Shown here piece by piece: positions 12,489-35,308 of a DNA stretch of 64,000 nucleotides. A program made the position numbers and the translations under genes. This DNA comes from an uncultured virus (IMG/VR IMGVR_UViG_3300047160_026157) (Duplodnaviria > Heunggongvirae > Uroviricota > Caudoviricetes). The stretch lies in the IMG/VR virus record IMGVR_UViG_3300047160_026157; one strand, 5' to 3'. Below the pieces are notes generated by a model, which searched no databases, was not told the origin of the DNA, and was given only the letters and a program-made list of their open reading frames with translations. Each line of letters opens with the position of its first letter. Position 1 is the stretch's first letter.

Positions 12489-12573
12489 AGCAAATTCGCG
12501 CGACTACACGGAAAAGCAAGTCAAACTGCGGCCCGCTTTGACCGCCCCGGGCCTGCCCCGGCACGCTGGGGCG

Positions 12574-15500
12574 ATGCCCGGGCTCTGTCAAACCGCCGAC
12601 GCCCTCCTCGCCGCGATCCTGGCCGACCCCTCCGAGGGCCTGTCCGCGGGCTCCCTGTCGCTCCTGGACGCCGTCTGCGCCGGCCCCCTCCAGTACGCCA
12701 GCTGGCACCACTACGAGGGCCCCCGCGGCGGCGTGGGCTGGGAGAACGAGCACGGCGACGTCGTCTACGGCGGCGACGCCCCGCCCGGCGAGCGTGGCGG
12801 CAAGAGGGCCGAGGAAGAGTTCCGGGGCGGCGCCCCGGCGGCCGCCGGGCCCGGGGGCGTCCGCGTGGCGCTGGCCCGGGTCGGCGAGATGGGCATGAAG
12901 GCGTTCGAGGGGGTCAACCATGTCCAGTCCCAGCTCGACAAGGTGGCCGTGGAGTTCGGCGAGGTCAAGCCCTTGATCGCCGAGCTGCCGGAGAAGTACC
13001 GGCCGATGGTCGCCGGCGTCTGGTGGGCGACCAAGCTGGCGACGAAGGCGGCCCTGGCGACTTACCTCCTGACCGAGCGGGCCGCCGAGCGGGTCGCCCT
13101 GTCCCGGGGCGCCAGCAAGGCCGTGGCCAAGGCCATTCGCGCGTTCGCCACCGCCATCGACGTGGTTGGTCTGCGGGTCGTGCCCATCATCCTTCAGGCC
13201 CACGGGGTCAGCCCGCTGGCTTCCCTGGCCGGGAGTCTGGTCCCGGTCGGCTCGGCCGCCTACCTGGCCTACGCCGTGGCACCCTTGGCCGTGCAGCTGG
13301 CTGGCAGGGCACTGCGGGCGGTCAAGGCATACGCCTCCGACGTCAAGGCGGCCTTCGGGTTCGCCGAGCCGCCGGGGATGACGATGGGGGCCGAGGAGAC
13401 GGGCCTCCAGCTCCAGCACGCCCGGAAGGCCAAAGGCGAGGACGCGGCCCTGGACGCGGCCCTGGACGCCGTCCTGCACCGCTTCGCGGAAGGGGTCGAG
13501 AAGCACGGCGAGTGGTTCGCGGCCCTGGCGTTCGCGGCCCTGTCGGTCTCGGAGACGGTCGATGACGCTCTGGACATGGCGGCGGAGATCGTCCAGGAAG
13601 AGGGTCCTCAGGGGCAGTACCTTCGCGGCCACCCCTTGCAGTTCGCCTGGAACCCCTACCACGGGCCGCGTGGCGGCGAGGGCTGGCAGAACGAGCAGGG
13701 CGACATTGTCTACGGCTCCACCCCGCCGGGCGAGAGAGGCGGCGGGAAGGCCGACGAGGCCCGCGGCTTCAAGAGCGGCCTGCGCAAGATCGCCCGGCTG
13801 GGCGGCAAGGCGTTCGCGGGCCTGGGCTACGCCGAGCACCAGGTCCAGCAGGTCGCCGGCGGCTTCTCGAAGTTCGTGGCGCCCCAGGTCGAGAAGCTGC
13901 CGCCGAAGCTCAGGGCCACCGTCAAGGGCATGTGGTGGCTCACCAAGCTGGGCCTGAAGACCTGGTTCTCCACGTACATCGCCGGCGAGCGAGCCTCGGA
14001 GGCGGTGGCCCGGCGGCTGGGCCTGTCGGACAAGGCGGCCCTGGCCGTGCGCGGCCTTGCCACCGGCATGGACGTGTTCGGCGCCAAGGCCGTGCCCCTG
14101 TCGCTGGAGCTGGCCGGCTTTGGCTTCTGGCCGGCGATGGGCGCCTCGATGATCCCGGTCGGCTCGGCGGCCTACCTCGCCTACGCCACGGCGCCCGGGG
14201 CCGTCCGGCTGGCCCGGAGGGCCCTGCGAGAGGTCCGCGACGCGGCCCGCGACATGAAGGAGGTCGGCAAGGCGGTCTTTGAGGAGTCGCCTCTGGGCTA
14301 CGCCCGCCTTGCCGGCCAGGAAGAAGACGGCCGGGCCGGGGCCCTGGAGGAGGTCCTGGAGCGCTTCGCCCGGGGCGCCCAGAAGTACGGCCAGTGGTAT
14401 GAGGCTTTGGCCTTCGCAGCCCTGTCGGTCACGAAGAGTGCCGGCCTTGCCCTCGACCTGGCCGAGCGGCTGGTGAAGGAGGGCGGCCGCAAGCGCTACG
14501 CCCGGCGGCCCGGGGAGCCGCACGACTACGGGACGGCGATGCTGATGCTGCCGGAGCCCCTCTCCCGCAAGCTCCTGGAGCTGGTCGCCCAGATCGACCC
14601 GGAGGACCTGGCCGAGGAGCCCGACGGCGAGCACCACATTACCGCCTTGCATGGCCTGCACGACGACGACCCCTTGCCGTTGCACCACGCCGTCCACGGC
14701 ATGGGGCCCGTCCGGATCAAGCTGGGCCCCCTCTCGACCTTCCCGCCCTCGGGGCACACGGGCGGCAAGGAGGTCCTGAAGGTCGAGGTGCAGGGTGACG
14801 ATGTCCACAAGTTACGGGACGCCCTGGCGGGGGTGACGGCCCACACCGACCACTTCCCCGAGGGCTTCAGGCCGCACATCACGCTGGCCTACCTGCACCC
14901 CGGCCGCGGCGGGCACTACACGGGCTCGCACCCCCTGGAGGGCACCGAGGTCGTCCTCGACCACCTGACGCTCTCGGACCGTCTGGGCGAGACGGTCGAT
15001 ATCCCCCTCCGGGAAGAGGAGATCCCCGACGACGAGGAAGAGGACGAGGAGTCGGGCAAGCACGCCCGCGACCGCCAGGGGGGCGAGGTTCCCGCCGAGC
15101 TGGACGTCGCCAAAGCTGCGGACCTGGTCACCTTCCCCGAGGCGGTCGAGGGCGCCAGCTGCGGCAACTGCATGTACGGGCCGGGCTCTGCCGGCGGCCC
15201 CTGCAAGCACCCCAGGCTGGACGGCACCCACGTCAACGACCGGATGTGCTGCTCCCTTTGGGACAAGCCTGGCACGCTAAGGGCCTGGGGGGAGATGCCC
15301 GGGGCCGGAGCGGAGCCCCTCCAGCACGCCCGGGAGGGCTTCCTGCTCCAGTACCAGTGGGAGCAGGACAAGCCGATGGGCACGTCCAAGACCGGCCTGG
15401 CGCTCCACAAGTGGGTGTGGAAGGGGGCCGGCGAGAAGAAGCGGCCGCGTATCCAGCACCGTGAGCCGGGCACCGGCCGGGCCCCAAGGGAGGCCGGCTG

Positions 15501-18500
15501 GGAGGGCCCGCCCAGGCCGCAAAAGCCCAAGGCTCCGACGCTCCAGGAAGTCGCCACGTCTTTGGCCAGCCTGAACCGCAAGGACGTGACCCAGGACCAC
15601 GTCAAGGCCGTGACGACCGCGCTTCTCTCGAAGACCAAGGCCCAGATGCACCAGCTCCGGGAGAACCTGCGGCTGGACGTCAGGGGCCTGAAGTCGGCGA
15701 CCAAGGACAAGCTCGCCCAGCGTCTGATCGACCACGTCCGGGGCTTCCACGCCCTGGCACCAACAGGAAAGGGGGCACCAAGTGCCGCTCAAGAAGGGCT
15801 CCAGCAAAGAGGTGGTGTCGGAGAACATCAAGGAGATGATCAAGTCCGGCCACCCGCAGAAGCAGGCCGTGGCGGCCAGCCTCAAGAAGGCGGGCAAGTC
15901 CAACAAGCCCAAGGGCAAAAAGTAGACCCCTGGGAGCGGGCAAAAGCACTACCCGCCCCCGAGAAGCTGCCCGAAGACCCGGGCCAGTATTTTAACCGCC
16001 CCTCGGGCACCATCGACGTCCCCCTCTCCCAGCTCAGGGCCACGCGGGCCCGGCCCGAGGGGATCGCCAACGCCGGCCGCTACATGGAGGCGGCCCGCCA
16101 GGGCATCCTCGGGAAGCGCGACCCGATCAAGGTGGTCAAGCAGCCCGACGGCAGCTACCTGGTCGCCGACGGCAACTCCACGTTCGCCAACGCCGAGAAG
16201 TCCGGCTGGAAGTCCATGCCGGTCCAGGAAGTCTCCCCCGAGTGGATGGAAGAGGAGAGGCAGCGGACCGTCGCCAAGGAGGACCAGAAGGCCCGGCAGA
16301 AGCTGGCCTCGGCGAGGCTCTTCACGCCCGAGGAGCAGGCGCTACCCCAGGAGCGGCCCAGCCTTGCCAGGAGCGAGGAAGACGCCTACGCCCACGCCGA
16401 GCGGGCCATGCCGGGCTTCCAGGAGATCCTGGACCGCGGCAAGGGGCTCTCCGCCCGCCTCGGCGGCCACGTCGTCACCGACTTCCAGAAGGCCCTGGGG
16501 GAGATGGAGTCTACCCCGGGGCCCTTCGTCATCATCGCCCCCCTGAAGGGCAAGGAGCGGGCCCGCGAGAAGGTCGGCGCCTGGTTCGGCAACGACTGGG
16601 GCCGGATGAACGACCTGGTCCGGGCCACCGTGGCCGTGGACGGCCCCGACGACGTGGCGAAGGCCGTCGAGGGTTTGAAGGCCGAGATGGGGGCGCACGG
16701 CTGGACGGTCAACCAGAAGCCGACCAACCGCTTCGAGAACCCCCTGCCGTCTGGCTACCGCGACATGTCCGTCACGGTCCGCTCGCCGGAGGGGATGACG
16801 GCCGAGGTGCAGATCAACACCAAGGCCATGATCCGGGCCAAGGAGGGCCCGGGCCACAAGCTCTACGAGCGGGCCCGCGCAATCGAGGGCAAGGCGGCCG
16901 TCGAGAAGCGTAAAATGACAGATGAGGAGACGGCGGAGTTCGAGCGGTTACAGGGCGAGATGGCCGGGCACTACAACGGGGCCTGGCATAAGGGACTGGG
17001 GGTGGAAGGTGCCAAACCAGCAGCCGGAGCGCAAGCCGGAGCCGGAGCAGCCGAAGGGGCAGGGGGCGGAGTATTACCTCCTGGACCAGGGGCAGCCGCT
17101 CCGGCGCCGGGAGCGGGGGGCGCTCCTGGAGGCCATGCGGGCGGACGGGACGTGGGCACACTGGAGCGACCCCAAGCGGCTGTGGGGGGAGGCCCAGCCG
17201 GTGAGCGAGCAGGAGTTCGCGGAGGCGGTCAAGGAGTGGCTCCGGCAGGGCCGCCGCCAGCAGCAGGGCCAGCAGGGCCAGCCGGCCCCGCCGGCGGCGC
17301 CGGGGGCCGGCCCGCCCCGGTAGGCTCGCCCCAGGAGGAAGCCGGCCTGCGTGACTACCTGGAAAAGGAGTTCAAGAAGCTCGGGCCGGGGACGGGCGGT
17401 TGGTTCGAGGGCACCTACCGCTCCTGGGCCACGAAGAAGGCGAAGGAGTACCGCGAGAAACAAGCGGCGGCCGCCCGGGCCGCCCCGAAGCCGGCGCCGG
17501 CCCCAGCCCCGGCGCCGGCCCGCCCGGCCCCGGCGGCGGCGGCGGGAGGAGAGCGGATGGCGCCCGCAGCACCTCGGGGGCCGGCCGTCCCTCCCGCCCC
17601 CGCGGCCGAAGGGACCTACGGCGTCCGGCCGCCCGAGGTGACGCCCCCGCCGCGGGCGCCCGCGGCCCCCCGGCAGGCCCGGGCGCCTCTGGCCGACCGG
17701 CTGGCCAGGATCCAGGAGCGTGAGAAGCAGGGCCGGGCGCCCTTCGCCGACATGCTGATCGCCAAGCTCAAGGAAGACAGGTTGGCGCCGGAGGGCACTA
17801 AACCCTCCGACGTGATCGGCGACCTGAAGCGCCTGGCCAGGGGCGACGCCCCCAAGTACCTGCCCCAGCACCTGCGCCAGGACCCGGCCGCCCTCGACAA
17901 AGCGCTCAAGGCCCTTGGCCCCGACTTCGGCCAGCTGTCGGCGAAAGAGCTGTACGACATCGCGCCCAGGATGACCTACCCCGAGCAGGCCGGCCAGGGC
18001 GTGGCCGGCCGCGAGGTGATCCAGCAGCGCTACCTGCCGGCCAACATCGGCGAGACGGTCGCCGCCAGGGAGCGCCCCGCTGCTACGACCCGGCCGGGCG
18101 CCGTCCCGGTCCCCGCCCGGCCCGAGCGGCCCCCTCAACCGGAGCCCCAAAGGCAGACGCAGCTGCCCCTGGCCGACCGCCTGGCGATGATGCAGGAGCG
18201 CGAGAAAGAGGGCAAGGCCCCCTTCGCCGACATGCTCATCACGCGCTTGAAAGACGACAAGCTGGTGCCCAAAGACATGCAGCCCGCGGAGGTGATTGCC
18301 GAGCTGAAGCGCTGGGCGGGGGGCAAGCAGACCACGACCCAGGGCCTGGCCACCAGGGCCAACAAGGAGAAGCTGGCCAGGGCCCTTCAGGCTCTGGGCC
18401 CCGACTTTGGCCGGCTCTCGACCAGCGAGCTGTTCAAGATCCTGCCGCACATGTCCTACCCCGAGCAGGCCGGCCAGGGGGTGGCCGGCCGCGAGGTGAT

Positions 18501-19518
18501 CGGCCGGCGCTACCTGCCGACGGACCTCGGCAAGCGCATCGGTCTGGCCCAGCACGGCCGCGAGCGGCTGGCCACCCGTTACGCCAGGCTGGCCGGCGGT
18601 GCCCTTGGGAGAGGGGATCCTGCGTCGGCCAGGATCTACGCCCGTCAGGCGGTTGACGAGCACGCCCGCGAGGTGCTTCGCTACGCTGCCCATGACGTTT
18701 CCGGCGAGCCGCGGGACGAGACGGGGAAGTGGACCACGGGCGGTGGCGGTGGCAAGGCGACCAGGGAAAAGGGCGGGGCGAAGGAAGCTCCGGCCCGGCC
18801 GCCCGAGAAGCCGCCGGCCCGGATCAAGTCGCAGGTGAGGGTGGCCGGTGCCTCCATGAAGGAGGCCCAGCAGATGATTGGCCGCCTGTTCCCGGGCAGC
18901 GATGACCCCGACCAGGCGCTGGCCGACGCCATCGGGGCCCCTGACGGCTCCCAGGTTGTGATTGGCGAGATAGGGCGCTACCGCCCTCTGTATGCGGATG
19001 ACCGTCTCCTCGATGCCGAGGGAATGCGCGTGAGCATTCACCATGCGAAGCTGGGCCTGAACAACTACTTCGTGGGCATTCGTCCAAACGGCAAGCGTCT
19101 GATCCGCAACGAGCTGATCCAGATTCGCGAGGGCTCGAAGGGCCAGGGCCTGGGGACCGAGATGTTCGCCCGCCAGGTCGAGACTGCCGTCGCCAGTGGT
19201 TTCGACGAGATCAACCTGCATGCCGCGGGCGGCCCTGGCGAGGGCATGAACGGTTACTACACCTGGCCGCGCTTCGGCTTCGACCAGGAGATCGAACCGC
19301 TACAGTGGACGAACGCCGCGCTGTACAGGCGAGTGCGGTATCGCTTCACCGGGGTAGAGCGGGTTAGCGATATCATGCGGACGCCGGCCGGCCGCGACTG
19401 GTGGAGGATGAACGGCGGCGAGCTGCACGACGCCCGGTTCGACCTTCGCCAGGGTTCCTACTCGCGGAAGGTCCTGGACGCCTACCTGGCCGAGCGCAAG
19501 GCCAAAAAGGGGGCCTAG
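12574..19518 (+). CDS. Giant polyvalent protein: duplicated hydrophobic module, Acb1-like 2H phosphoesterase, Cys cluster, ParB-like, RelA/SpoT-like and GNAT domains
   Basis: HITAL/HITLAY 2H motifs; DPIKV...LVADGNST; LKG.ERAREK, DLVRAT, SGYRD, EVQINT; GQGLGT...NGYYTWPRFGF; ATG 12574 follows a promoter motif. Confidence 0.85.
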   Translation: MPGLCQTADALLAAILADPSEGLSAGSLSLLDAVCAGPLQYASWHHYEGPRGGVGWENEHGDVVYGGDAPPGERGGKRAEEEFRGGAPAAAGPGGVRVALARVGEMGMKAFEGVNHVQSQLDKVAVEFGEVKPLIAELPEKYRPMVAGVWWATKLATKAALATYLLTERAAERVALSRGASKAVAKAIRAFATAIDVVGLRVVPIILQAHGVSPLASLAGSLVPVGSAAYLAYAVAPLAVQLAGRALRAVKAYASDVKAAFGFAEPPGMTMGAEETGLQLQHARKAKGEDAALDAALDAVLHRFAEGVEKHGEWFAALAFAALSVSETVDDALDMAAEIVQEEGPQGQYLRGHPLQFAWNPYHGPRGGEGWQNEQGDIVYGSTPPGERGGGKADEARGFKSGLRKIARLGGKAFAGLGYAEHQVQQVAGGFSKFVAPQVEKLPPKLRATVKGMWWLTKLGLKTWFSTYIAGERASEAVARRLGLSDKAALAVRGLATGMDVFGAKAVPLSLELAGFGFWPAMGASMIPVGSAAYLAYATAPGAVRLARRALREVRDAARDMKEVGKAVFEESPLGYARLAGQEEDGRAGALEEVLERFARGAQKYGQWYEALAFAALSVTKSAGLALDLAERLVKEGGRKRYARRPGEPHDYGTAMLMLPEPLSRKLLELVAQIDPEDLAEEPDGEHHITALHGLHDDDPLPLHHAVHGMGPVRIKLGPLSTFPPSGHTGGKEVLKVEVQGDDVHKLRDALAGVTAHTDHFPEGFRPHITLAYLHPGRGGHYTGSHPLEGTEVVLDHLTLSDRLGETVDIPLREEEIPDDEEEDEESGKHARDRQGGEVPAELDVAKAADLVTFPEAVEGASCGNCMYGPGSAGGPCKHPRLDGTHVNDRMCCSLWDKPGTLRAWGEMPGAGAEPLQHAREGFLLQYQWEQDKPMGTSKTGLALHKWVWKGAGEKKRPRIQHREPGTGRAPREAGWEGPPRPQKPKAPTLQEVATSLASLNRKDVTQDHVKAVTTALLSKTKAQMHQLRENLRLDVRGLKSATKDKLAQRLIDHVRGFHALAPTGKGAPSAAQEGLQQRGGVGEHQGDDQVRPPAEAGRGGQPQEGGQVQQAQGQKVDPWERAKALPAPEKLPEDPGQYFNRPSGTIDVPLSQLRATRARPEGIANAGRYMEAARQGILGKRDPIKVVKQPDGSYLVADGNSTFANAEKSGWKSMPVQEVSPEWMEEERQRTVAKEDQKARQKLASARLFTPEEQALPQERPSLARSEEDAYAHAERAMPGFQEILDRGKGLSARLGGHVVTDFQKALGEMESTPGPFVIIAPLKGKERAREKVGAWFGNDWGRMNDLVRATVAVDGPDDVAKAVEGLKAEMGAHGWTVNQKPTNRFENPLPSGYRDMSVTVRSPEGMTAEVQINTKAMIRAKEGPGHKLYERARAIEGKAAVEKRKMTDEETAEFERLQGEMAGHYNGAWHKGLGVEGAKPAAGAQAGAGAAEGAGGGVLPPGPGAAAPAPGAGGAPGGHAGGRDVGTLERPQAAVGGGPAGERAGVRGGGQGVAPAGPPPAAGPAGPAGPAGGAGGRPAPVGSPQEEAGLRDYLEKEFKKLGPGTGGWFEGTYRSWATKKAKEYREKQAAAARAAPKPAPAPAPAPARPAPAAAAGGERMAPAAPRGPAVPPAPAAEGTYGVRPPEVTPPPRAPAAPRQARAPLADRLARIQEREKQGRAPFADMLIAKLKEDRLAPEGTKPSDVIGDLKRLARGDAPKYLPQHLRQDPAALDKALKALGPDFGQLSAKELYDIAPRMTYPEQAGQGVAGREVIQQRYLPANIGETVAARERPAATTRPGAVPVPARPERPPQPEPQRQTQLPLADRLAMMQEREKEGKAPFADMLITRLKDDKLVPKDMQPAEVIAELKRWAGGKQTTTQGLATRANKEKLARALQALGPDFGRLSTSELFKILPHMSYPEQAGQGVAGREVIGRRYLPTDLGKRIGLAQHGRERLATRYARLAGGALGRGDPASARIYARQAVDEHAREVLRYAAHDVSGEPRDETGKWTTGGGGGKATREKGGAKEAPARPPEKPPARIKSQVRVAGASMKEAQQMIGRLFPGSDDPDQALADAIGAPDGSQVVIGEIGRYRPLYADDRLLDAEGMRVSIHHAKLGLNNYFVGIRPNGKRLIRNELIQIREGSKGQGLGTEMFARQVETAVASGFDEINLHAAGGPGEGMNGYYTWPRFGFDQEIEPLQWTNAALYRRVRYRFTGVERVSDIMRTPAGRDWWRMNGGELHDARFDLRQGSYSRKVLDAYLAERKAKKGA
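15782..15925 (+). CDS. Nested +1-frame 47 aa basic protein [47 protein letters not shown]
   Basis: Purine-rich RBS; 45 of 47 codons end in G/C; resembles small proteins seen near phage head genes. Confidence 0.75.
   Translation: [47 protein letters not shown]
17009..17323 (+). CDS. Nested +1-frame 104 aa protein; candidate antitoxin of the RelA/SpoT domain
   Basis: Globular-looking EYYLLD...DGTWAHW...VSEQEFAEAVKEW, while the host frame is G/A/P low-complexity; start codon inferred. Confidence 0.7.
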   Translation: MPNQQPERKPEPEQPKGQGAEYYLLDQGQPLRRRERGALLEAMRADGTWAHWSDPKRLWGEAQPVSEQEFAEAVKEWLRQGRRQQQGQQGQPAPPAAPGAGPPR

Positions 19519-20211
19519 ATGCCGGGCTACGAGATCGACCTGAACGACGACGAGGAGCGGGCCCTCGACGCGGCCTGGGAGAAGCTGGACGCCCGGGAGG
19601 GCGGCCCCGCGGTCGAGCGCTACGCCGCCCATGACGTCTCCGACGAGCCGCGCGACGACAGCGGTAAGTGGACGAAGGGCGGGGGCGGCGGAGCGAAAGG
19701 AGCTGTGGAGTCGCCGGGGAACCAGACGTTCTACCACGTCACGAAGAAGGGGGTAGGCGATGCGATTCGCAAGGGGGGGTTCAGGGCCGGGACTTCCGCA
19801 GGGCTGGAGATGGGGCCGGGCGTCTACCTGGCGGCCACGCCCAGATACCCGACGCGCTTGCGGAAGGCCGGGGAGGAGTACGATACGGAAGTGGTTCAGA
19901 CGAAGATCGATCCCTCGGTGAAGTTCTTCCCGCTGGACCCCGAGGCGCCGAACCCCGTCAGCCATATTTACCGTAACCTGTTCGGCGACGACTGGGCGAA
20001 GAAGTATGACGCCGACAGCAAGGCGGGCCGGCTCTTTAGTGGTATGTATCCAAACTGGGCGCACTTGCACGAGCTGCTGAAGGCGGAAGGCTATGGTGGC
20101 ATCAGTCGGCCGGCGAGCGCGGACGCCCCTGGTAATACCGACATGGTGGTCTTCGACCCGAAAAACGTGCGCGTTCAGCCGGTCGCCTACAGAGGGAGGG
20201 AGCAACCATGA
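19519..20211 (+). CDS. ADP-ribosyltransferase-like (polyvalent-protein ART) with acidic N-terminal peptide
   Basis: FYHVT...GF...GPGVYLA...GYGGI...VVFDPKNV. Confidence 0.7.
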   Translation: MPGYEIDLNDDEERALDAAWEKLDAREGGPAVERYAAHDVSDEPRDDSGKWTKGGGGGAKGAVESPGNQTFYHVTKKGVGDAIRKGGFRAGTSAGLEMGPGVYLAATPRYPTRLRKAGEEYDTEVVQTKIDPSVKFFPLDPEAPNPVSHIYRNLFGDDWAKKYDADSKAGRLFSGMYPNWAHLHELLKAEGYGGISRPASADAPGNTDMVVFDPKNVRVQPVAYRGREQP

Positions 20212-22052
20212 ACCTTGCCCAGCAGTACGCCCGCCTGGCGGACCGGGCCGCCCGCAGGGGCGACCCTGCCAGTGCCCGGATCTACGCCTGCCAGGCCGCG
20301 GGGGCCCGCCGCTACGCCAGTCCCGACCCTGTCCGCAGCTACTCGATCTGGCGGCGGAACCTTCTGTGGGCGCTCGAAGGGCAGACCGTGGCGATGCCCT
20401 CGGACGCCCAGACCCGCCGCTGGTTCGACAACGGAATGAGCGTGGCCGACGCCCGCGACAAGTTCCTGAGGGACCAGCTCCGGGGGGCCACGCGCTTCCG
20501 GCGGGCCCAGGGCACCGCGATCCCCGCCCAGACCTACGCCCGCCTGGCGGCCCGGGCCGCCCGCCAGGGCGACCCCGCCAGTGCCCGGATCTATATGCGG
20601 CAGGCCCGGGAGGCCGGCTGGACCCTGTACTTTCGGCTGGCCTGGGGCGCCCGGGCCCGCGGCGACCGTGCCAGTGCCAGGATCTACCTGCGGCAGGCCC
20701 GGGGGGAGGCCCTGCGTTACGAGGGCTGGGACGAGTCCAAGCACCCCCGTGGCCAGCCGGGGAACAAGGGGCAGTTCGCCTCGTCGCCCGGTGGCGGCGG
20801 GGGTGGCGGCGAGGCGCCTGCCGCGGGCAAGGGCCAGCCGCCGGCGGGCGAGGGCAAGGCCGCGGCCCAGGCCCCGGCCGGGCGGGACGAGGCCGGCCTG
20901 CGCTCCTACCTGGAGAGCGAGTTCGAGAAGCTGGGCCCGGGCACGGCCGGCTGGTTCGAGGGGACCTACAAGTCCTGGGCCAAGAAGAAGATCAAGGAGT
21001 ACGAGGAGCACGGCGGGGCCGCCGGCCTGTCGGACGCCTTCACGAAGGAGCCGACCACCCCGCCGCCCCCGGGCAAGGTCTACGACCCGGACGTCGAGGC
21101 CGACGCCGACGGCGACGGGATTACCGACGCGGCCCGGGTGGGTGTGCCCGCCATGCAGGTGCCGCCGCCGCCGCCCATCGGCCGGCTGCCCAACCTGACC
21201 GAGCAGGAGCGTCGCGTCGAGAGCGACTTCCGGGACGGCTTCATGCGGGATCCCGTTGGCGTGGCCGCCAGGTTTGCCGCCTACGCCCGCGGGCTGAAGC
21301 CGGGCGAGCCGCCCACGTTCGGCACGGATGACGCGAAGGTGCTGTGCGATTCCTGGGGAGGGCTCAAAGCTGACGAGGACAAGGTGGCGCGTTCCTACAA
21401 CCGGGCCGTCCTGAACTGTGCCGTTCATCAGACCGCCAACGCCATCGCCAAGGCCGCCTTCCTCCAGGAGCTGGACACCATGAAGCCCGGCGACCAGATC
21501 ATGGTCACGGTCGGTGGCTGCGGTGCTGGCAAGGGCTTTGGGCTCAAGAAGGTCGATAAGGCCAAGGCGTTGAAGATGGCCTCCAAGGCCGTCTGGGACT
21601 CGGCGGGCGACCAGAACGCTACCGAGAACCCGTGGGTGCAGCAGGAGGCCGAGAAGCGCGGGCTCAAGGTAGCCTACGCCTACGTGAGCGTGGACCCCTA
21701 CCGGCAGTGGGGCGATCCGGAGAAGGGGGTAGTCAAGCGGGCCAACGATACCGAAGATGGCCGTATGGTGGCCATCGACGTGTTCGCTGACAGCTACGCG
21801 ATTGGCGCTCGGAACTTCGCGAAGTTCTACGAGCAGAACAAGGGCAACCCGAACGCCAGCTTCATCTTCCTGGACAACAACAAGTTCCCCGTAGAGATTC
21901 CCGGCATCCCCGAGTCGGACCTGAAGATCGACCGGCACAAGCTGGCGGCCCACGCGACGAAGTTCATCGAGGACCACCCGGAGATTCCCGAACACATCAA
22001 ACGCGGTGCCCGGATCAGCGAGCGCATCTGGGCTGGGAGGGAGCATCAATGA
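20208..22052 (+). CDS. Polyvalent protein with C-terminal zeta-toxin-like P-loop kinase
   Basis: GGCGAGKG P-loop; VWDS; VVKRA...GRMV. Confidence 0.75.
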   Translation: MNLAQQYARLADRAARRGDPASARIYACQAAGARRYASPDPVRSYSIWRRNLLWALEGQTVAMPSDAQTRRWFDNGMSVADARDKFLRDQLRGATRFRRAQGTAIPAQTYARLAARAARQGDPASARIYMRQAREAGWTLYFRLAWGARARGDRASARIYLRQARGEALRYEGWDESKHPRGQPGNKGQFASSPGGGGGGGEAPAAGKGQPPAGEGKAAAQAPAGRDEAGLRSYLESEFEKLGPGTAGWFEGTYKSWAKKKIKEYEEHGGAAGLSDAFTKEPTTPPPPGKVYDPDVEADADGDGITDAARVGVPAMQVPPPPPIGRLPNLTEQERRVESDFRDGFMRDPVGVAARFAAYARGLKPGEPPTFGTDDAKVLCDSWGGLKADEDKVARSYNRAVLNCAVHQTANAIAKAAFLQELDTMKPGDQIMVTVGGCGAGKGFGLKKVDKAKALKMASKAVWDSAGDQNATENPWVQQEAEKRGLKVAYAYVSVDPYRQWGDPEKGVVKRANDTEDGRMVAIDVFADSYAIGARNFAKFYEQNKGNPNASFIFLDNNKFPVEIPGIPESDLKIDRHKLAAHATKFIEDHPEIPEHIKRGARISERIWAGREHQ

Positions 22053-22264
22053 CACCCGAACAGAAGCGTGAGTGGGAAGAGTGGATGCGGGAGGACGCGG
22101 AGCGGCTGAACCGGCTGTGTGAGATTGCCGCCAGGGACGGCGGGCAGATTAAGTGCAACGCCGGGCCGCCGCCCAAGCTGAACAAGGATGGCTCCCTGGC
22201 CGGGCCGGAAGAGGCCCCCGAGGAGGGCGAGGGCCTGCCGGAGGGCGAGGGCGAGGAGAAGTGA
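22049..22264 (+). CDS. Small acidic protein; candidate antitoxin of the zeta-like domain
   Basis: ATGA-coupled to the kinase gene; GGGAG RBS. Confidence 0.65.
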   Translation: MTPEQKREWEEWMREDAERLNRLCEIAARDGGQIKCNAGPPPKLNKDGSLAGPEEAPEEGEGLPEGEGEEK

Positions 22265-22299
22265 CTACTCGGAAAAGCAAGTCAACCTGGGGGTGACCC

Positions 22300-25200
22300 G
22301 TGCCTTCCGCCATGCCTCCGGCCAACGGCCAGGCGCCGGCCCCTGCGCCCGCTCCCCAGGCCCCGCCCCCCGCGGCCCCGCCGCCGCCCGAGCCGGGCCT
22401 GCGCGCCGCCGAGGGTAACGCCAACATCTACTCCTCGAAGCTGAACGCCATCATGCGCCTGCTGATGGGCGCCGAGACGGACGAGGAGTTCGCGGCGGCC
22501 CGGCAGATGGCCGCCCAGATCGTGCAGATGTCCGACGACGACGCCCGGGCCCTCCTGGGGGGCCAGGAGCCAGGGGGCGGCAGCTTCCTGCGGCACCTGC
22601 GCGAGGACTACCCGCTCCAGTACGCGATGAAGACGAAGTGCCAGACCTCGGGCGCCCAGTTTCACATCCACACCGGGCCGCGAGAGGTAGACTGCCGGGT
22701 GACGATGCCCTTCGACCTGGGACTCGACGAGAAGGAGGCGTCCCTTCTGGAGGCGAATCTCCACAACGCGCTGGAGCTGGTCCTGGCGCGTTACTTCGTC
22801 GGGGGCGACGAGGACGATGCGGACCGTCACTTCCGCGCGGACTACCCGCTCCAGTACGAGGCGCCGCGGGTGCTCGGCGGCTACGGCGGCATCGGCGGTC
22901 AGGGGGGCGGGACGTGGATTCTCGCCGAGTCGCTGGCACGCTTCTACGCCGGCCTTTTCACCGACATGGAGGCCGCTGGGCGGCCGCCCAAGGAGGACGA
23001 GGTTTCCGACGCCCTGGACGAGATCGGGCCCCACGGCTGGACCCTGGAGCACGAGGGGCATACGTGGGAGGCTGTCCGCCTGGACGAGGAAGAGGAAGCC
23101 CTCCCCCACAAGCGGGTCAAGGCCGGCACGCCCGGGGCCATCGAGCTGACCGACAAGCGCGGCCACAAGTACCACGTGGACAAGGAGACGGCCCGCAAGC
23201 TGGGCGTCGTCCCCCGCCGGCCGGCCGCCACCGCGGCGGGCGTCATGACCCGGCTGGCGCCTCACGCCGTGCCCATCGGCGGCCCTTCCCACGCCCAGAC
23301 CGTCCGGGCCTGGCAGGCCCTCTTGAAGCACCACGGCCCCGAGGCGGTCGGCCGCCTCGACGAGCTGGCCGGCGGGGCCGAGGAAGCGCTGGCGAAGACA
23401 ACCGACCCTGCCCTGAAGACCCGCCTGGCCCAGAAGCTGGGTGCGCTGCACGCGATGGCCCGGCTGGCGGCGGAGCCGGCCGGCGAGGAGACGGTCGAGC
23501 TGGCCGCCAACGCTCCCCTGGACGTCGAGACGGGCGCCCTGAGCATTGACTACGGCGACCTGTCCCGCTTCGGCGGCGCCTTGAAGACGCAGTCGGCGAA
23601 GCGTGACCTGGCCGCGTTCCTCCAGAAGGCGACCACGCTCTCCGACGAGGATCTGGACAAGCTGATGAAGGCCCAGGACACGCGCAGCCGGCTGGGCTTC
23701 ATGCAGCTGAAGGGCTTGCAGCATATCGCGCAGGTGCGGGCCGAGGCCCGGCCGGCTGCCACCGTCCCCGAGGCGCCGCCGGCCGCCACGGCGGCCCCGG
23801 TGCCTGGTGCTACCCCCGTTGCCAGGGCCTTCACCGGCCTGCGCGACGTGGCCGCCGAGCTGCAAGCCATCCGCGAGGACATGACATCGGCCAGCCCCGA
23901 CCCGGACCTGCAACAGCGGGTGGACGCCGCGGGTGCCTGGCTGGCCGCCAACGCCAAGCCTGGCGGTCTGGGGGACAAGCTGCTCCAGGAGGCACACCAG
24001 CTCAACGACCGGCTGGCCGGCGGCAGCGGCAAGCCGGGGATGCGTATTCAGATGCCGGAGCCGCCCGCGGAGGAGGAGATCCCCGTCGAGGCGCAGCCGC
24101 CGGTGACGAAGGGGGACGCGGTCACGGTTCACCTCCCGCATGACTACGGGACCACCCGGCGGGGGACCGTTGAGAGCGTGGCGGGCGGGCTGGTTCACGT
24201 TCGTGATCAGTATGGCACGCTCCAGTCCGTCACCCCGGGCTTCGTAGAAGGCGGCTTCACGGGCACGACCCGCGACAGCCTCGGCCGGGAGTACCACTGG
24301 ATCGACGGCAAGCGGACGAAGAAGGGGCTCTTTACCGACTTTCGGAAGGTGCAGCTGGACCCCCTGGCCGCCTACCTGTACCAGCACATGGGCAACGAGC
24401 CCCTGGACACCGCGAAGCTGATGGAGAAGGCGAACATCGGCGGCGTCGGCGGCTGGAACAGCATGCGCTCGGTGGACGAGAACCTGGAGCGGCTGGAAGG
24501 CCGCGGGCTGATCCTGAAGAGCGACGACGGCTACCGGCTCAACCCGGAGAAGTCGGTGGACTTCGAGGGCAAGCTGGTGCCCTTCCCCTGGTCGCCGAGT
24601 GTCGAGGCCGCCGACCCGGACAGGGCGACCAAACCGGAGGCGGTGGGCGTGGCGGAGCCGGCCCGGAAGCCCGGCCCGGCGGCCCTGGCCGGCGACCTCC
24701 CGACCGCCTTCCTAGGCATGACGAACCCCGTGGCCACGGCCCGCCTCTACGGGCTGCCCGACGACTTCTGGGACGACGGCCGCAAGGTGGAACAGAGTAC
24801 CCGCGGGTTTGGCACGGCCGGCCTGGTCGGCTCGGTGGTGGTCAACGACAAGTACGATCCCGACGACGCCGTCGGCAAGGCCCTGGCCGAGCGGCAGAAC
24901 CTCGTCCGCCAGGGCCAGTACAAGTTCATGCACCGGCAGCGGGCCGACGCCGCGGTGAAGCAGGCCCTGGCCGCCGCGGCCGCCCGGGCTGCCGGGGCGA
25001 AACAGCCCGCCGCCGTGAAGCCCGTGCGGGGGATGCAGGTCCTGGCCGCGATGGCCGCCCGGGAAGCCGCGGCGGCGAAGGCCCAGTCTGAGGCGGCTGC
25101 TCTGGGGGAGGAAGAGGAGTCCGGGTTCGAGCCCACCACCGAGCAGACCTACGCTTACTCCCTAAAGCCGTGGAACCTGGACAAAGAGACCTTCGACGCC

Positions 25201-28200
25201 GTCGGCGCCAGCAAATCCCTCCTGGTGAACATCAAGCGTTCGCCCGAGAAGAGGGCTCAGTTCTCGGAGGAGGCCCGGCGGCTCCGCTTTGGCGAGTGGG
25301 TGGCGGTCCGCGACTGGCGGACCGGCAAGGAGTCCTACGGCCACCCCGTCGGCATCTACCTGGCCGGCAGCAGCACCGGCGGGACGGGACCGGAGGAGGA
25401 CGTGCAGATCAGCTACGGCGGCTGGGGGCCCCGGACGCCCAGCGTCACCTCCCCCAAGGCGATCCGCCCGCTGAGCTACGACGAGGTGCTCGACGCGGCT
25501 CGCGCTGCCGGTCAGGTAATCCCTGAGGAGGCCGGGGTGCCTGCCGAGGCCCGCCCGGCCGAGCCCGGCTTCACGGGCACCACGGTGGACTCTCTGGGCC
25601 GGGAGTACCACTGGGTCAACGGCAAGCGTACAAAGAAGGCCGAGGAGCCGGCGGCGGCCCCGCCGGCCACAGCACCCGAGGAGGAAGAGCATGAACTGGA
25701 AAGAGAGGGCCCAGCAGGCCCGGGGAGAGGGCTACCGGCCGGGGAACGGCTGGGAGCGCCAGCTGGAGCAGCACCTCCGGAAGTTCTTCCCCCAGCTGGT
25801 CCGAGAGCTGGGGGCGAACCTGAAGCCGTTCCTGGAGGCGCAGACCTGGGACGTCATGGTCTACGAGCAGGACCTGGTGGAGCAGAACACCCCGCCGTTC
25901 TCGGCCCGGGAGCTGGCGCTGGCGAGGCTCTTGCCGCCCCCGCCGGAGGACCTGGAGAGGCCACAGACGTGGGAGGTACAGTCGGGCCTGGAATCCCAGG
26001 CGGAGGCGGCGGCGGAAGTGCTGCCGTTGCTCGGGAAGCCTCGCTCCAAGAGCCCGCCACGGCCCTGAACCCGACCGATGTGGCCGCCGGCAACTTCCGC
26101 TACGTGGAGGGCGGCGACGCCAGCCCGCCGGGCTCGAAGTCCAAGTTCTGGGCCAATATCGCCGCCCTGCGCGTCCTGGAGGCTTTGAAGCTCGAAGGCC
26201 GCGACACGGCCACGCCGGCCGAGCAGCTGACGCTCTCCAAGTTCTCCGGCTGGGGCCAGTTCAAGCGGGCCTTCGACTACAACGTCCCCGGCGGCAGCTA
26301 CGAGGAGTACCAGAAGTGGGAGAAGGAGCGCCAGACGCTCAAGGGGCTTCTGGGCGAGCGTGAGTACGAGCTGGCCCGGAAGTCCGCCCTCAACGCCCAC
26401 TACACCGACCCCTCGGTGGTCAAGGCCCAGTGGGACATGGCCCGCAAGCTGGGCTTCACCGGCGGCAAGTTCCTGGAGACGTCGGCCGGCATCGGCTACT
26501 ACCTGGGGATGATGCCGCCCGATCTCATGGCCCAGACGCAGGCCACGGCGGTCGAGATGGACCCCGGCCCGGGGAAGATGCTCCAGCTGCTCTACCCGAA
26601 GGTGACCACCAAGGTGCAGGGCTTCCAGGACTTCCAGGCCCCGGACAACTTCTACGAGCTGGTGGCTTCCAACGTCCCCTTCGCGCACGAGATCGGTTTC
26701 TACGACCCGGAGTACGCCAAGTACCAGCCGGCCCTCCATGACTACTTCTTCCTGAAGTCCATCGACAAGGTCCGGCCGGGCGGCCTGGTCATGCACATCA
26801 CCTCGACGGGCACGCTGAACAAGCCCGACAGCCCGGCCCGCCAGCGGATGGTTGAGCAGTCGGAGCTGGTCGCCGCCATCCGCTTCCCCGGCGGCCAGCA
26901 CAAGGAGTCGGCCGGCACCGAGGTGGTGACCGACATGCTGATCCTCCGGAAGAAGCATCCCGGCGAGGAGCCGGTCGATCCCGACAAGACGCCGCCGGAA
27001 GCCATGCCGCCCGCCGCCCAGGATGCCGTGGAGCGGCTCCGCAAGATGGAGGAGCTGGGGCGGGCAATGGGCCGGTCGCCGGAGGACATGAGGGTCGGGC
27101 TGGACTCGATCCGCGACGACATCGAGAAGGCCACCGCCGGCTTCACCGGCATGACGACCGACAGCCTCGGCCGGGTCTACCACTGGGTGAACGGCAAGCG
27201 TGTCCCGGGCCCGCGCTGGGACGACGTTCTGACCGTGCCTGACCCGGCCGGCGGTAAGCCCATCCCGACCAACCGCTACTTCGTCGAGCACCCCGAGCAG
27301 GTCCTCGGCACCATCGACCGCTCCGGGCACCTGCACCAGCCCAACGAGCCGGGCGTGACCGCCGCCCCCGACTACGAGGAGCGGCTGCAAGCGATCATCG
27401 ACCGGCTGCCGGAGGGCCTCCTGAAGCGTACTGGCGTCCCGGCCGGCCCGGCCGGTTCCGAGGCCCTGCCGGCCCCCGGCGAGGTCAAGGAGGGCGGCTA
27501 CACGATTGTGGACGGCAAGCTCTACCAGCGGGAGCGTGGGGCCCTCATCCCGCAGGAGGTGAGCGAGAAGGAGCTGGCGCTTATCCAGGAGCACCTGGAG
27601 ATCCGCGACGTCGTCCGCGACAGCCTCAACCGCCAGCTGGCCGGCGAGAGTGCCGACGAGGCTCGCGAGAAGCTGAACGCGGCCTACGACGCCTTCGTGG
27701 CCGAGCACGGCCCGCTCCACAACCGGGCCAACTTCCGGACCTTCCAGGACGACCCCGACGCCCCGGTGCTTTTGGCCCTGGAAGACGAGTACGACCCGAA
27801 GAAGAAGACGGCCACCAAGGCGGACATCTTCAGGAAGGACACGGTCCGCCACGTCGAGACGCCCGAGTCGGCCGGCACCATCGCCGAGGCGGTCGGCATC
27901 TCGCTGCACACCACCGGCCACCTGGACGTCAAGGAGATGGCCAGGCTGCTGAAGAAGACCCCCGAGGAGACGGGCGAGCTTCTGGCCGCCTCGGGGCTGG
28001 CCTATAACGACCCGGAGCTGGGCTGGAAGCCGGCGGCCGAGTACCTCTCGGGCAACGTCCGCCGCAAGCTGACGCTGGCCCGGGCCGCTGCCGAGACCGA
28101 CCCGAAGTTCCAGGCCAACGTCACCGCCCTGGAGGCCCACCAGCCGAAAGACCTTGACTCCTCGAGGATCAGCGCCAAGCTGGGCGCCGTCTGGGTGCCG

Positions 28201-31200
28201 CCCGACGACATCGCCAGCTTCGCTGCCATGCTGCTCGAAGGCCAGGCCGACAAGTTCGCCATCAAGTACATCCCGCAGACCGGCGAGTGGCAGGCCGACT
28301 TCTCCCCCAACGGCGAGTTCCTGGCCCGGGGCGAGCAGGCCACGACCGTCTGGGCCACCGACGACGTGGACTTCATGAAGCTGTTCGAGGCAGCCTTGAA
28401 CGGCAGCACGGTTACGGTCCGCGAGCCGGACCCCGCAGACTCGAAGAAGAGGATCGTCAACCGCCGGGCGACCGACGACGCCCAGGCGATGGTCCAGAAG
28501 ATGCGCAACGCCTTCAAGACCTGGGTCTGGGAGGACGACGAGCGGCGGCAGCGGTTGACAAGGTTTTACAACGACAACTTCAACAACATCGTCAAGATGC
28601 ATTACGACGGCTCGCACCAGACCTTCCCGGGGCTGAACCCGGCCATCAAGCTGCGGAGCCTGCAAGCGGACTTCGTCTGGCGGGTGGTGACGACCGGCGG
28701 CGGCCTGGCGGCCCACGACGTCGGTACGGGCAAGACGCTGTCCATGATCTGCGCGGCGATGGAGCTGCGGCGTCTGGGCCTGGCCAAGAAGCCGGCCATC
28801 TGCTGCCTGAAGTCGAACATCGAGCAGATCACCGCCGAGGCCCGCCGGGCCTACCCGGCCGCCCGCATCCTCTCCACCGAGGGCATGTTCGACGCGAAGT
28901 CGAGGAAGAAGACCATCGCGCGCATGGCGACCGGCGACTACGACATGGTCATCATGACGCATGACAATCTCAACATGCTGCAAATGAAACCGGAGGTGCA
29001 GGCCAAGTACATCCGCGAGGAGATGGCCGACCTGGTGGCCGCCAAGGCCCGGGCCGAGAAGGACGTCGCCGAGGCGGAGGCTTCCGGCGGCTACGGTCGC
29101 CGCGGCCGGGCCGAGGCCGCCGGCCGCGTCGTCGCCTCCATCGAGAAGGCCATGATGAACCTCCAGGAGCGTTTGGAGAAGGCCCTCGACGCGACCAGGA
29201 AGGACAACGCCGTCTTCTTTGAGGATACCGGCATCGACACCTTGATGATCGATGAGTGCTTCCCCGGCGACACGCCTGTCATGACGCGGGCCGGCGAGGT
29301 GCCGATCAGGGAGGTTGTCCAGGGGCGTCTTCCCGGCCCCGTGCTAACCTTGAACCGCGCGACGGGCGGGTTAGAATGGCGGCCCGTGACGGCGTGGTTC
29401 GAGCGCCCCTTGCGGAACCACCTGGTCCGCGTGGAGCACGAGTGCGGCTCGTTCGTCTGCACCTGTAACCACAACGTCTGGACCGAGGAAGATGGCTATG
29501 TCCAGGCCGGCCGGTTGCTACCCTCCCATACCCTGCGGGTTCTGCCACAAGGCCATTCCTTCTACCCCGTCGAGGCGGTGGAGGGTCCGGCAGGGGCGGA
29601 CGCAGTATTGCGACAAGCGGTGTCACGACCGGGGGCAGACGGGCAGGCCCTTCACGCGGACCTGCGAGTGGTGCGGCGGGCCGTTCACGGTGCCTGGCAG
29701 GCACCGGGCGAAGCTCGGGCGGGGGCTCCTGCGCTTCTGTGGGAAGGCTTGTGCGATCAGCTGGCGGTGGTCGCTGTCGGGGCGGACGTTCCTGTCGCGT
29801 GGTGGCAAGGGGCAGAGGACGGTGCCCCAGAAACTGCTCTCGGAGGCGCTGGGCTGGCCGGACATGGAGCATACCATCCTCACGGCGCCGGTCAGGGGGC
29901 GGTTCCCCTGCCTGCCCAGCTCTTACGACGTGGACGTTGCCTGCCCGGCCGCGAAGGTGGCGGTCGAAATCGACGGGAATTCTCACCGCACGCGGAAGTG
30001 GCAGTTCCTCGACAAACGCAAGACGGAGATCCTGTCCGCTCTCGGGTGGTCGGTGTTGCGCTTCACCAACGCGCGGGTGAAGAACGAACTTTCGACGGTC
30101 GTTCAGGAGATCAGGTCGTTTACGACTTCGAGGTTGCCGGCACCCACAACTACTTCGCATCCGGGGTGAACGTCAGCAACTCCCACAAGTACAAGTCGCT
30201 GCCGGTCTATACCAAGATGCAGGGCCTGAAGGGGGTGCCGACCAGCCGCTCGAATCGGGCCACCAGCATGCTCATGCGGACGCGCTGGCTCCAGGAGCAG
30301 CACAACGGCCGCGGTGTTGTCTTCGCCACCGGCACGCCCATTACCAACACGCTGGCCGAGCTTTACAACCTCCAGCGCTACTTGCAGCCCGGGGAGCTGA
30401 AGGAGCGCGGCATTGACAACTTCGACGCCTGGGCCCGCTCCTTTGCCGAGGTCGAGACGAAGCGCGAGTTCACCGTCTCGGGCGAGTACAAGCCGGTGAC
30501 TCGCCTGGCCGCCTTCTCCAACGTCGCCGAGCTGATGCAGATTGCCGGCCAGGCCATCGACTTTGTGGCCACCGAGGACGTCAAGGACGCCGAGGGCAAG
30601 CCGGCGATCACCCGGCCCGACCGCCACGACCACGTCATCGCGGCCCCGAAGTCGGACGCCATGATGGCCTTGATGGAGAGCCTGCAAGCCCGGGCCAGGT
30701 CGATCAAGCGCTTCGACCCGGAGAACCCCGACAACATGCTGGTCATCTGCACCGACGGCAGGAAGGGTGCCCTGGACATGCGGCTGGTGGACCCCAACGC
30801 GAAGGACGACCCGCAGAGTAAGACCAACCTCGCCATCGACAACGTCCTGAAGCTCTACAAGGAGCGGCCCGGCAAGACGCAGCTGATCTTCTCGGATGTT
30901 GGCGTTAACCCCATCGAGGTCGGCGAGCGCACGAAGACGGACGCCGACGAGCCCGAGGAGGGCGAGGCCCCCGAGGACTCGACCACCATGCACTGGTACG
31001 GCGACGTCATCGACAAGCTGGTCGCCAGGGGCATTCCCAGGGAGAAGATCGCCGACTTCTCGAAGCTCAAGGGCCAGGCCAAAATCGACGCCCAGCTGGG
31101 CTTGCAGCGGGGCGAGATCGCCGTCGCCATCGGCTCGACCGACAAGCTGGGCACGGGCGTCAACGTCCAGCGTCAGGTGACGGCCATGCACCACCTGGAC

Positions 31201-35060: not shown

Positions 35061-35093
35061 GCCGGGGAACCCCTGGAAATCCGCTGATTCCTC

Positions 35094-35124
35094 TCAATAA
35101 ATGTCCACCCGGAGCGAATTACCT
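35094..35124 (+). promoter_or_regulatory. Early-type promoter
   Basis: TCAAT-N15-GCGAATTACCT; near-identical to 37192-37222. Confidence 0.6.
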
Positions 35125-35308
35125 AAGGGAGGGGCCCGCAGGGGGCCCCGGCCCCGGGGCCCGAGGGAGGGTCAGCCATGAACGCCAAGGTTCCCAAGCC
35201 GGCGACGCCGAGCGGGCGGCGCCTGGCCTACGTGGCCGGGCTCGCCTTCTGGACCTGCGAGACGCCCCGGGCCCCGCGGCCCGACGACAAGAAGAAGGAG
35301 ACCAAGCG

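Follow-up and report, generated by a model that had tools for sequence, protein, structure and literature searches.

Two giant multi-domain genes of an uncultured phage that probably run across four small genes read one base out of step

The stretch of DNA analyzed here (the window) comprised 64,000 nucleotides (nt) of an uncultured virus of the class Caudoviricetes (IMG/VR record IMGVR_UViG_3300047160_026157), displayed a GC content of 70% throughout, and carried on its plus strand two giant open reading frames (ORFs): (i) H1 (12538–19518; 2326 codons), a multi-domain ORF with a TTG start, and (ii) H2 (22300–32724; 3474 codons), composed of an N-terminal region, an N6-methylase-like region, and an SNF2/DExH helicase split by a predicted intein. 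Four small ORFs (n1 to n4) were nested on the same strand inside these host ORFs, all of them in the +1 frame: n1 (15782–15925; 47 codons, GTG start, TAG stop) overlapped H1 residues 1082–1130, n2 (17009–17323; 104 codons, TAG stop) overlapped H1 residues 1491–1596, n3 (25691–26068; 125 codons, ATG start, TGA stop) overlapped H2 residues 1131–1257 and stopped 2 nt short of the methylase homology, and n4 (29492–30169; 223–225 codons, starting at ATG 29492 or 29498, TGA stop) lay wholly inside the intein. For n2, a GTG start was preferred, the alternative ATG at 16922 having no Shine-Dalgarno (SD) sequence. The coordinates and the uniform +1 offset reported in an earlier reading of the bare sequence (referred to below as the original prediction) were reproduced; the giant ORF start at 12574 given there was an internal ATG of 12538–19518.

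An open frame was by itself uninformative in the window, because of the 70% GC content and the presence of 145 ORFs of at least 40 amino acids (aa) overlapping positions 11000–34000, antisense ones of up to 1040 aa among them; composition and homology were thus used as the test. The GC content at third codon positions (GC3) of the nested frame was 0.96, 0.97, 0.92, and 0.85 for n1, n2, n3, and n4, respectively, while the giant frame across the same spans had third-position values of 0.35, 0.52, 0.45, and 0.60 versus 0.89 overall (0.885 for the whole of H1 and 0.892 for the whole of H2). In this per-frame comparison, which had been proposed as a check of the original prediction, the genome codon bias was carried over all four spans by the nested frame and not by the giant one. 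In a sliding frame scan, the +1 frame took over at 15700–15910, 16930–17290, 25590–26010, and 29490–30090, with only blips of at most 120 nt elsewhere, and a GC3-contrast scan of all +1 and +2 ORFs within H1 and H2 recovered only these four spans, the two +2 matches being shadows of n2 and n3. The earlier count of 45 G/C-ending codons among the 47 of n1 was exact, and the giant frame was indeed G/A/P/Q/R-rich filler as had been described (68% G/A/P/R/Q over the spans versus 41% elsewhere). Over the spans, the giant frame was composed as a younger, overprinting frame would be.

SD-like duplex energies (kcal/mol) were -10.7 for n1 (SD-like sequence AAAGGGGG), -9.7 for n2, and -11.8 for n3 (SD sequence GAGGAGGA), which ranked in the top 6%, 10%, and 3%, respectively, among 109 start codons of the +1 frame; clear gene starts in the window gave -10.7 (at 19519) and -11.9 (at 20208). 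The assertion that each nested ORF was preceded by a sequence resembling a ribosome-binding site was thus borne out for n1, n2, and n3 with strong sequences and only in part for n4, whose sequence was moderate (-5.9; top 31%).

Homologues were found for all four nested proteins, a search for stand-alone ones having likewise been suggested. n1 matched phrog_2423 (E 2.5e-16; n1 residues 1–44 on profile positions 1–44 of 52; PHROGs has no curated cut-off), and tblastn of n1 matched 132 phage records. Across seven phage records the n1 homologue was (i) an annotated gene of 44–58 codons in four (phiEap-2, MW202825, BCSR129, and PP21), (ii) the N-terminus of a larger coding sequence (CDS) in two (IME-AB2, annotated as "head maturation protease", and MW202675), and (iii) unannotated in one (MW202796); its neighbors were mostly genes for head or internal-virion proteins, and no giant ORF enclosed it in any of the seven. 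For n2, an exhaustive phmmer search against 1.84 billion representatives retrieved five proteins (E 4.7e-15 to 9e-4), four of which were 70–79 aa long with ends matching those of n2, and the fifth (P0009; 249 aa) had the domain at its N-terminus and no similarity to H1 beyond this n2-like part; conservation in the n2 alignment was too low to permit a pattern scan. Both n1 and n2 started exactly at the N-termini of their families. The one relative of H1 that was found was a distant locus (L008; L-numbers denote loci of relatives or phage records), in which the domain order differed and n1 and n2 were absent.

The comparison was most extensive for n3. A database of 5.8 billion proteins contained only two matches to it (98% [P0003] and 46% identity), both from short contigs, and the methylase-helicase part of H2 had relatives at 6 loci from viral contigs and 80 from metagenomes, with giant ORFs of 2385–3693 codons (stop to stop) in L001 to L005 and of 2025 codons in L006, where the ORF was cut by the locus end. 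A hidden Markov model (HMM) of the n3 family was run over the six-frame ORFs of 92 sources, 82 of which had the methylase N-terminus, and the family was found to be (i) nested in the +1 frame of the methylase ORF in 10 sources (the window, L001, L002, L003, L012, L015, L018, L019, L055, and, weakly, L070); (ii) separate and just upstream of the methylase ORF in 45, with a gap mostly of -1 to 86 nt and a methylase ORF of typically 1930–2045 codons where complete; (iii) separate and just downstream in five (L005/L006/L013, L014, and L017); (iv) in frame with the methylase ORF in none; and (v) without a family HMM match in 22. A family member was thus located within or adjoining the methylase ORF in 60 of the 82 sources with methylase, by a criterion of our own that was drawn from these loci and not from publications. 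In all 10 nested cases, the upstream part was in the methylase frame (host ORFs of 1820–5528 codons; L001 and L002 identical across n3), and the nested gene ended 18–117 nt before the methylase homology in the nine sources measured (all but L070). Nesting was present in nine distinct lineages, the methylase regions of which differed by about one substitution per site, and start, stop, and length of the nested gene were kept among them. In a FastTree of 37 out of 76 methylase-helicase rows, all nested cases fell in one of two main clades (100% support); no nested case occurred in the other, in which every family match was a separate upstream gene.

All aligned n3-family members began with Met at the homologous N-terminus. 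In tblastn searches against L003, the nested frame of n3 gave E 1e-26 versus E 0.16 for the giant-frame translation of the same span. AlphaFold2 predicted n3 as a helical bundle (predicted local distance difference test score [pLDDT] 82.9, with residues 1–80 above 90; predicted template modelling score [pTM] 0.62) and the giant-frame reading over n3 at eight loci as being devoid of secondary structure (pLDDT 56.1; pTM 0.15). Strong Pfam matches were given only by three separate family members, namely to DUF1896 (PF08989) by L046 and L039 and to TnpV (PF14198) by L017, while nested members gave sub-threshold ones of 15–22 bits versus cut-offs of 25–27 (TnpV, 1.6e-4 for L018 and 0.021 for L012; DUF1896, 0.0069 for L001). 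The family profile matched 2apl (PG0816) in the PDB with E 3.2e-4; when the n3 model was compared to PDB structures with Foldseek, no match reached E<=0.001, and 2apl ranked second (probability 0.84; root-mean-square deviation 1.8 Å over 60 columns) but with E 2.5. On these comparisons, n3 would be a DUF1896/TnpV-like helical protein and its gene an old partner of the methylase-helicase gene: like the DUF1896 and TnpV small proteins of conjugative transposons, it was small, helical, and encoded beside the same methylase-helicase gene, and it differed from them in that n3 of the window had no Pfam match at E<=1.

Some further arrangements were observed among these relatives. At L005 17721–19631 (and also in L006 and L013), a 637-codon ORF lying 2.6 kb beyond the downstream end of the methylase-helicase gene had an n3-like segment (E ~2e-4) as its in-frame N-terminus; a stand-alone n3 homologue was present at these three loci as well. 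L019 had, at 6114–6281 inside its 5528-codon ORF and far from the n3 homologue, another candidate gene nested in the +1 frame (56 codons; GC3 0.84 versus 0.45 of the host frame), and weaker nested candidates were located at L001 12268–12426, L015 16782–16970, and L004 9579–9812.

The predicted intein surrounding n4 (29257–30180; plus strand, H2 frame, 308 codons) interrupted helicase motif II between its DE and SH, with the junctions LMIDE/CFPGD...THNYFASGVNVSN/SHKYK (splice sites marked by slashes). Inteins have a block B motif T-x-x-H, and their C-terminal blocks F and G finish with an Asn that precedes a Cys, Ser, or Thr, the penultimate residue usually being His. The predicted intein displayed an N-terminal nucleophile (Cys at H2 residue 2320, LMIDE/CFPGDTPV), a block B T-C-N-H in FVCTCNHNVWT, and a C-terminus VVYDFEVAGTHNYFASGVNVSN/S with terminal Asn and following Ser; the corresponding ends in Corynebacterium phage phi673 and Vibrio phage CP-T1 were VHN/C. 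BLASTP matched its N- and C-terminal parts to the CP-T1 gp10 helicase intein (E 8e-5 and 5e-4, respectively). The insert was precisely absent from relatives, since the junction DE/SHKYKSLP aligned to a continuous DE[AS]H.YK in the relatives with a recognizable motif (8 of 10), and tblastn showed a gap at H2 2320–2595 in all of L001 to L006.

n4 filled the middle of the intein and had its stop 11 nt before the intein end. Its product harbored Cys-rich zinc-finger-like repeats followed by a DUF559 (Vsr-like) domain (PF04480; E 1.4e-14, 54.3 bits versus a cut-off of 20.6, n4 residues 143–209) and matched NCBIfam NF007294 with E 4.9e-9 (36.3 bits, below the equivalog cut-off of 218). tblastn of n4 matched 42 phage records, all under helicase-type CDSs, and in 4 of 4 records examined the homologue was in the +1 frame of the helicase CDS, at the same motif-II site, and itself unannotated: phi673 (L007 2480–3118; GC 52%), CP-T1 (L092 2501–3250; GC 46%), and Vibrio phages 1.088.O and K391 (L097 and L098, from 2501). 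In the two of these sequences that were read, phi673 and CP-T1, the nested endonuclease ORF had an ATG of its own as start. Judged from its sequence, n4 would be a free-standing Vsr-like homing-endonuclease gene placed where inteins usually carry their endonuclease. Its first ~20 codons (29492–29560) overlapped Hint-like intein sequence after block B (WTEEDGYVQAGRLLPSHTLRV), and the last ~15 overlapped block F; both ends may be regions of true dual coding rather than gene over filler.

The openness of the giant frame was evaluated by fixing the nested protein and redrawing its synonymous codons from host ORF codon usage. Over n3, the probability of an open giant frame in relatives was 0.35 (L003), 0.039 (L001), 0.019 (L012), 0.049 (L019), 0.041 (L015), 0.115 (L018), and 0.43 (L055); for the endonuclease genes of phi673 and CP-T1 it was 0/3000, with 15–19 stops expected. 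When n4's own synonymous codons were permuted, the giant frame remained free of stops in 0.13% of trials, and the third frame carried 1–21 stops in every span so tested. The joint probability for the window spans (~0.0025) assumes independence, and products of the openness probabilities, although very small, assume independent lineages. Because the layouts persist at 46–57% GC, where chance gives 0/3000 to 0.05, selection would seem to keep the giant frame open. The notion that high GC3 makes such an architecture easy to evolve was accordingly only half sustained, as it suits the window spans (0.10–0.31 by chance) but not the same layouts at this lower GC.

No ATG, GTG, or TTG of the giant frame was present from -60 to +150 nt of the stop of n1 or n2; after the n3 stop, only GTGs lacking an SD sequence were present within 36 nt, and a TTG with an SD-like sequence (-8.7) lay 117 nt downstream, inside the methylase homology. 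A complete downstream module would thus need read-through, since no suitable giant-frame start follows the nested stops.

Taken together, with a probability of about three in four, two giant multi-domain phage genes each span a pair of complete small genes that are read one base out of register. The status of n1 to n4 as small genes follows from codon bias, a start at the family N-terminus, a stop, and homologues, plus SD-like sequences in three of the four; that they are real genes missed by gene callers, as originally predicted, was upheld by codon bias and homologues in each case. One mRNA would be read in two ways, the double expression being inferred: ribosomes from the giant-gene start would read frame 0 into one long polypeptide in which the overlaps with n1, n2, and n3 form flexible linkers, and other ribosomes would start internally at the nested SD sequence and start codon to make the small protein. 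Codon bias and comparison with relatives suggest that the nested genes are the older partners and that the giant frame over them is the newcomer.

How the overlaps arose would differ between them. In the case of n3, a small partner gene directly ahead of the methylase-helicase gene would have been read through in its stop-poor -1 frame when, in this phage clade, upstream domains became joined to the methylase-helicase. The proposal of fusion by reading through neighboring genes is accordingly well supported for n3 (45 sources with a separate upstream gene and 10 nested, the latter in one clade), is plausible for n1 and n2 because small homologues exist, and fails for n4, which would be no read-through neighbor but a homing-endonuclease gene inside an intein and so a mobile insertion. 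For n4, an endonuclease gene would have invaded the intein; its product would drive homing of the whole intein unit, and its frame-0 shadow would be removed with the intein by protein splicing. The related proposal that nested genes double as linkers therefore keeps its force for n1 to n3, over which the giant frame is a spacer, and not for n4, whose giant-frame shadow should leave with the intein in which n4 sits.

Several observations weigh against this reading. Within the window, chance could suffice for an open giant frame (probabilities of 0.31, 0.27, 0.29, and 0.10 over n1, n2, n3, and n4, respectively), and the SD-like sequence of n4 was weak. The homologues of n2 stemmed from contigs of only 537–2845 nt, too short for gene context, and n2 had no match in Pfam, PHROGs, NCBIfam, phage tblastn, a word-index protein search, or viral contigs; likewise, no relative of H1 with n1 or n2 nested was found, including two further viral scans with other parts of H1 that gave no match. 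On the methylase-helicase tree, the "nested" state had to change five to six times, which leaves a single origin unestablished; nesting may have arisen once and then been lost or moved. The lack of a Pfam match (E<=1) for n3 of the window left its link to DUF1896/TnpV to sub-threshold matches of relatives and to synteny. The intein had Ser instead of the usual His as penultimate residue and missed the Pfam threshold (PF14890 Intein_splicing, E 0.019, 15.2 bits versus a cut-off of 35.8, C-terminal block only), and no intein family was found at E<=0.01 with the whole of H2. Finally, MAFFT identities were 16–41% for the giant-frame filler and 14–45% for the nested frame; percent identity was rejected as a discriminator of frames, which it fails to separate because the filler is of low complexity and aligns as well as the real frame.

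The nested ORFs might alternatively be unexpressed relics, that is, neighbors or domains swallowed by fusion or frameshift, with the codon bias kept because the event was recent and with the giant frame alone functional. Homing-endonuclease genes commonly decay, the SD-like sequence of n4 was weak, and n1 and n2 had no comparative series, all of which suit this explanation; it was nevertheless judged improbable, since n3 kept its start, stop, length, and confident fold across the nine nested lineages at ~1 substitution per site, n1 and n2 began exactly at their family N-termini behind SD-like sequences, and n4 had an above-threshold DUF559 match together with the same layout in four of four distant phages. 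An equally improbable alternative holds that the giant ORFs are not single translation units but separate genes that only look joined in a stop-poor -1 frame, read-through being incidental or harmful. The chance probabilities of 0.10–0.31 per window span and the spurious ORFs of up to 1040 aa on the other strand would fit; against this, ribosomes must read on where the giant frame has no stop, giant-frame starts were missing near the stops of n1 and n2 (after n3, the first 36 nt offered nothing but GTGs lacking an SD sequence), continuity was also present in relatives at 55–58% GC (open by chance with a probability of 0.019–0.049), the upstream part was in the methylase frame in 10 of 10 nested n3 cases, and the intein requires an open frame, which chance gave in 0/3000 trials for phi673 and CP-T1.

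Programmed +1 frameshifting into the nested spans, giving truncated fusion products besides or instead of independent initiation, is very unlikely: the frames are on the same strand and offset by +1, and the upstream SD-like sequences could stimulate shifting in the manner of the SD-like frameshift stimulator known from prfB, but the nested family members begin with their own Met or Val at the homologous position and stand-alone versions exist. Assembly or sequencing indels that put in-frame domains out of frame, for which nothing specific spoke, can be practically dismissed, since eight compensating errors would be required, contigs of other runs were gap-free over n1 and n3 without any indel in H1 or H2, and the same layouts occurred in independent assemblies and isolate phage genomes.

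The contigs used for this last comparison were short-read soil contigs of four other runs, in pieces of 200–570 bases at low depth, and the listed pieces covered n1 and n3 and not n2 and n4. One of them extended over the whole of n1 and differed from it by one substitution (15799 C>A), and another matched n3 over its full length without differences; the substitution was synonymous in n1 and non-synonymous in H1, which, as a single site, proves nothing. Indels splitting the giant ORFs, named beforehand as an outcome that would undo the original prediction, did not appear within H1 or H2 in these contigs. Many contig "joints" had sides of 20–24 letters and most likely represented other organisms or repeats. 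The only indels reported were a compensating pair just upstream of the H2 start in three runs, with a base inserted after 22232 and a base missing at 22236.

A wider generalization of the preferred reading, that giant genes run across complete small ones, can be put forward only tentatively and is rather less than an even bet: overprinting fusion would be a regular, selected route by which phages arrive at polyvalent proteins, the small gene staying functional and being co-expressed from its internal start, and giant ORFs would hide many small genes. Along such a route, an upstream gene would lose its stop and read the small gene's stop-poor -1 frame, which would supply a ready-made disordered linker to the next gene. 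If it applied, nesting would moreover set how much n3, as an obligate DUF1896/TnpV-like partner (chaperone, adaptor, or regulator), is made per giant methylase-helicase.

Embedded same-strand genes with their own initiation site include Rz1 inside Rz (+1 frame) of lambda and E inside D of phiX174, in both of which the inner gene counts as the more recent one. In the window, by contrast with Rz1 and E, the embedded gene would be the older one, and the overprinting frame would be a linker fusing two older proteins. As for inteins, the "fractured genes" attributed to Dassa et al. (2009) reportedly have split inteins whose halves are separated by a free-standing Vsr-like homing-endonuclease gene, the host gene being two genes and splicing occurring in trans. 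The invasion proposed for n4 comes close to that model, and the two resemble each other in having a Vsr-like gene with its own start and stop in intein DNA, while in the window the host frame was open and the intein contiguous.

Actinobacteriophage inteins with a homing endonuclease read in another frame or on the other strand were described by Gosselin, Arsenault & Gogarten (bioRxiv 10.1101/2025.01.02.630785); according to the text of that preprint, the cases comprise one gene resembling endonuclease VII, read in "frame 3", together with LAGLIDADG or VSR-like genes on the antisense strand, hosted by DNA polymerase, minor capsid, terminase, and thymidylate synthase, and it is proposed there that a free-standing endonuclease gene invaded the intein and that annotation pipelines miss such genes. 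Common to those inteins, as presented in that text, and to the n4 intein was a central region that is an open spacer with a complete endonuclease gene read separately; unlike those cases, n4 was on the sense strand in the +1 frame, encoded a zinc-finger plus DUF559 protein, and was located in helicase motif II inside a 3474-codon ORF of polyvalent type. This n4-like form was also present in the Corynebacterium and Vibrio phages. A complete endonuclease gene in another frame inside a methylase gene, read through without stops or splicing, was described in 2025 (PMC11855218), and in the passages on that insert its translation in the host frame is predicted to give a loop that leaves the enzyme undisturbed, the insert being mobile and without a detectable ribosome-binding site. 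Compared to the insert as described there, the nested genes of the window were likewise complete out-of-frame genes inside an open host gene, but n1 to n3 were not nucleases and had SD-like sequences, and n3 would be an old syntenic partner instead of an invader. Out-of-frame endonuclease genes in inteins, and one in a methylase gene, were therefore already known since 2025, as far as these texts go, while the sense-strand +1 Vsr-like helicase form of n4 was absent from the preprint text, the supplements of which may list such cases.

Polyvalent proteins of phages and conjugative elements join unrelated enzymatic domains, including methylase plus SNF2-type helicase (Iyer et al. 2017, PMC5512222). 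The main text of that paper contains no mention of overlap, frameshift, intein, TnpV, or DUF1896 and describes no nested linker genes, and no description of non-endonuclease genes nested in the linkers of polyvalent proteins was found in the literature. What the window adds is the n3 series, in which one gene is found separate, nested, and relocated beside one partner. From such a series the direction of change can be read, an uncommon situation among overlapping genes: the embedded gene would be the old one and the new frame a linker between two older proteins, which would amount to a way of accreting domains without recombination, nearly free in GC-rich phages yet kept at 55% GC. The series also suggests that the methylase-helicase proteins widespread in phages and conjugative transposons have a small, conserved partner. 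Small nested proteins of this kind are missing from annotations because gene callers forbid genes inside genes. n4 adds a sense-strand Vsr-like form to the inteins with separately read endonuclease genes, a group that bears on the acquisition of endonucleases by inteins and the origin of split inteins.

A polyvalent protein would be expected to hold several unrelated domains; of the giant ORFs, H2 had the methylase-like region (seen through relatives) plus SNF2/Helicase_C, and H1 had only sub-threshold matches (2',5'-RNA-ligase-like and RelA/SpoT-like; Pfam, 23–26 bits, below the cut-off of 27). Profile search detected no MuF-like domain in H1 or H2, and megablast of 12538–32724 against phage records gave no match. 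H1 contained two pairs of duplicated modules, 12718–12771/13663–13716 (GPRGG.GW.NE.GD.VYG) and 17686–17760/18166–18240 (PLADRLA..QEREK.G.APFADMLI), which suggests that tandem module duplication helped to build this ORF. H2 contained three copies of a 20-residue motif, FTG.T.DS.GR.YHW..GKR, at 24256–24315, 25570–25629, and 27142–27201, the second of which ended ~60 nt before the n3 start and the third of which lay within the methylase region and was conserved in relatives; the motif may constitute a small domain that recurs, or it may mark junctions or cleavage sites.

Elsewhere in the window, a portal gene (3163–4965) matched phrog_113 (E 4e-21), and an ORF at 34934–36151 matched the queuine tRNA-ribosyltransferase family phrog_887 (E 6.5e-31) and was DpdA-like. 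From the presence of these two genes the window was taken as part of a soil phage genome, the phage origin being a probable one that rests on the phrog_113 portal match. The DpdA-like ORF hints at 7-deazaguanine modification of the phage DNA.

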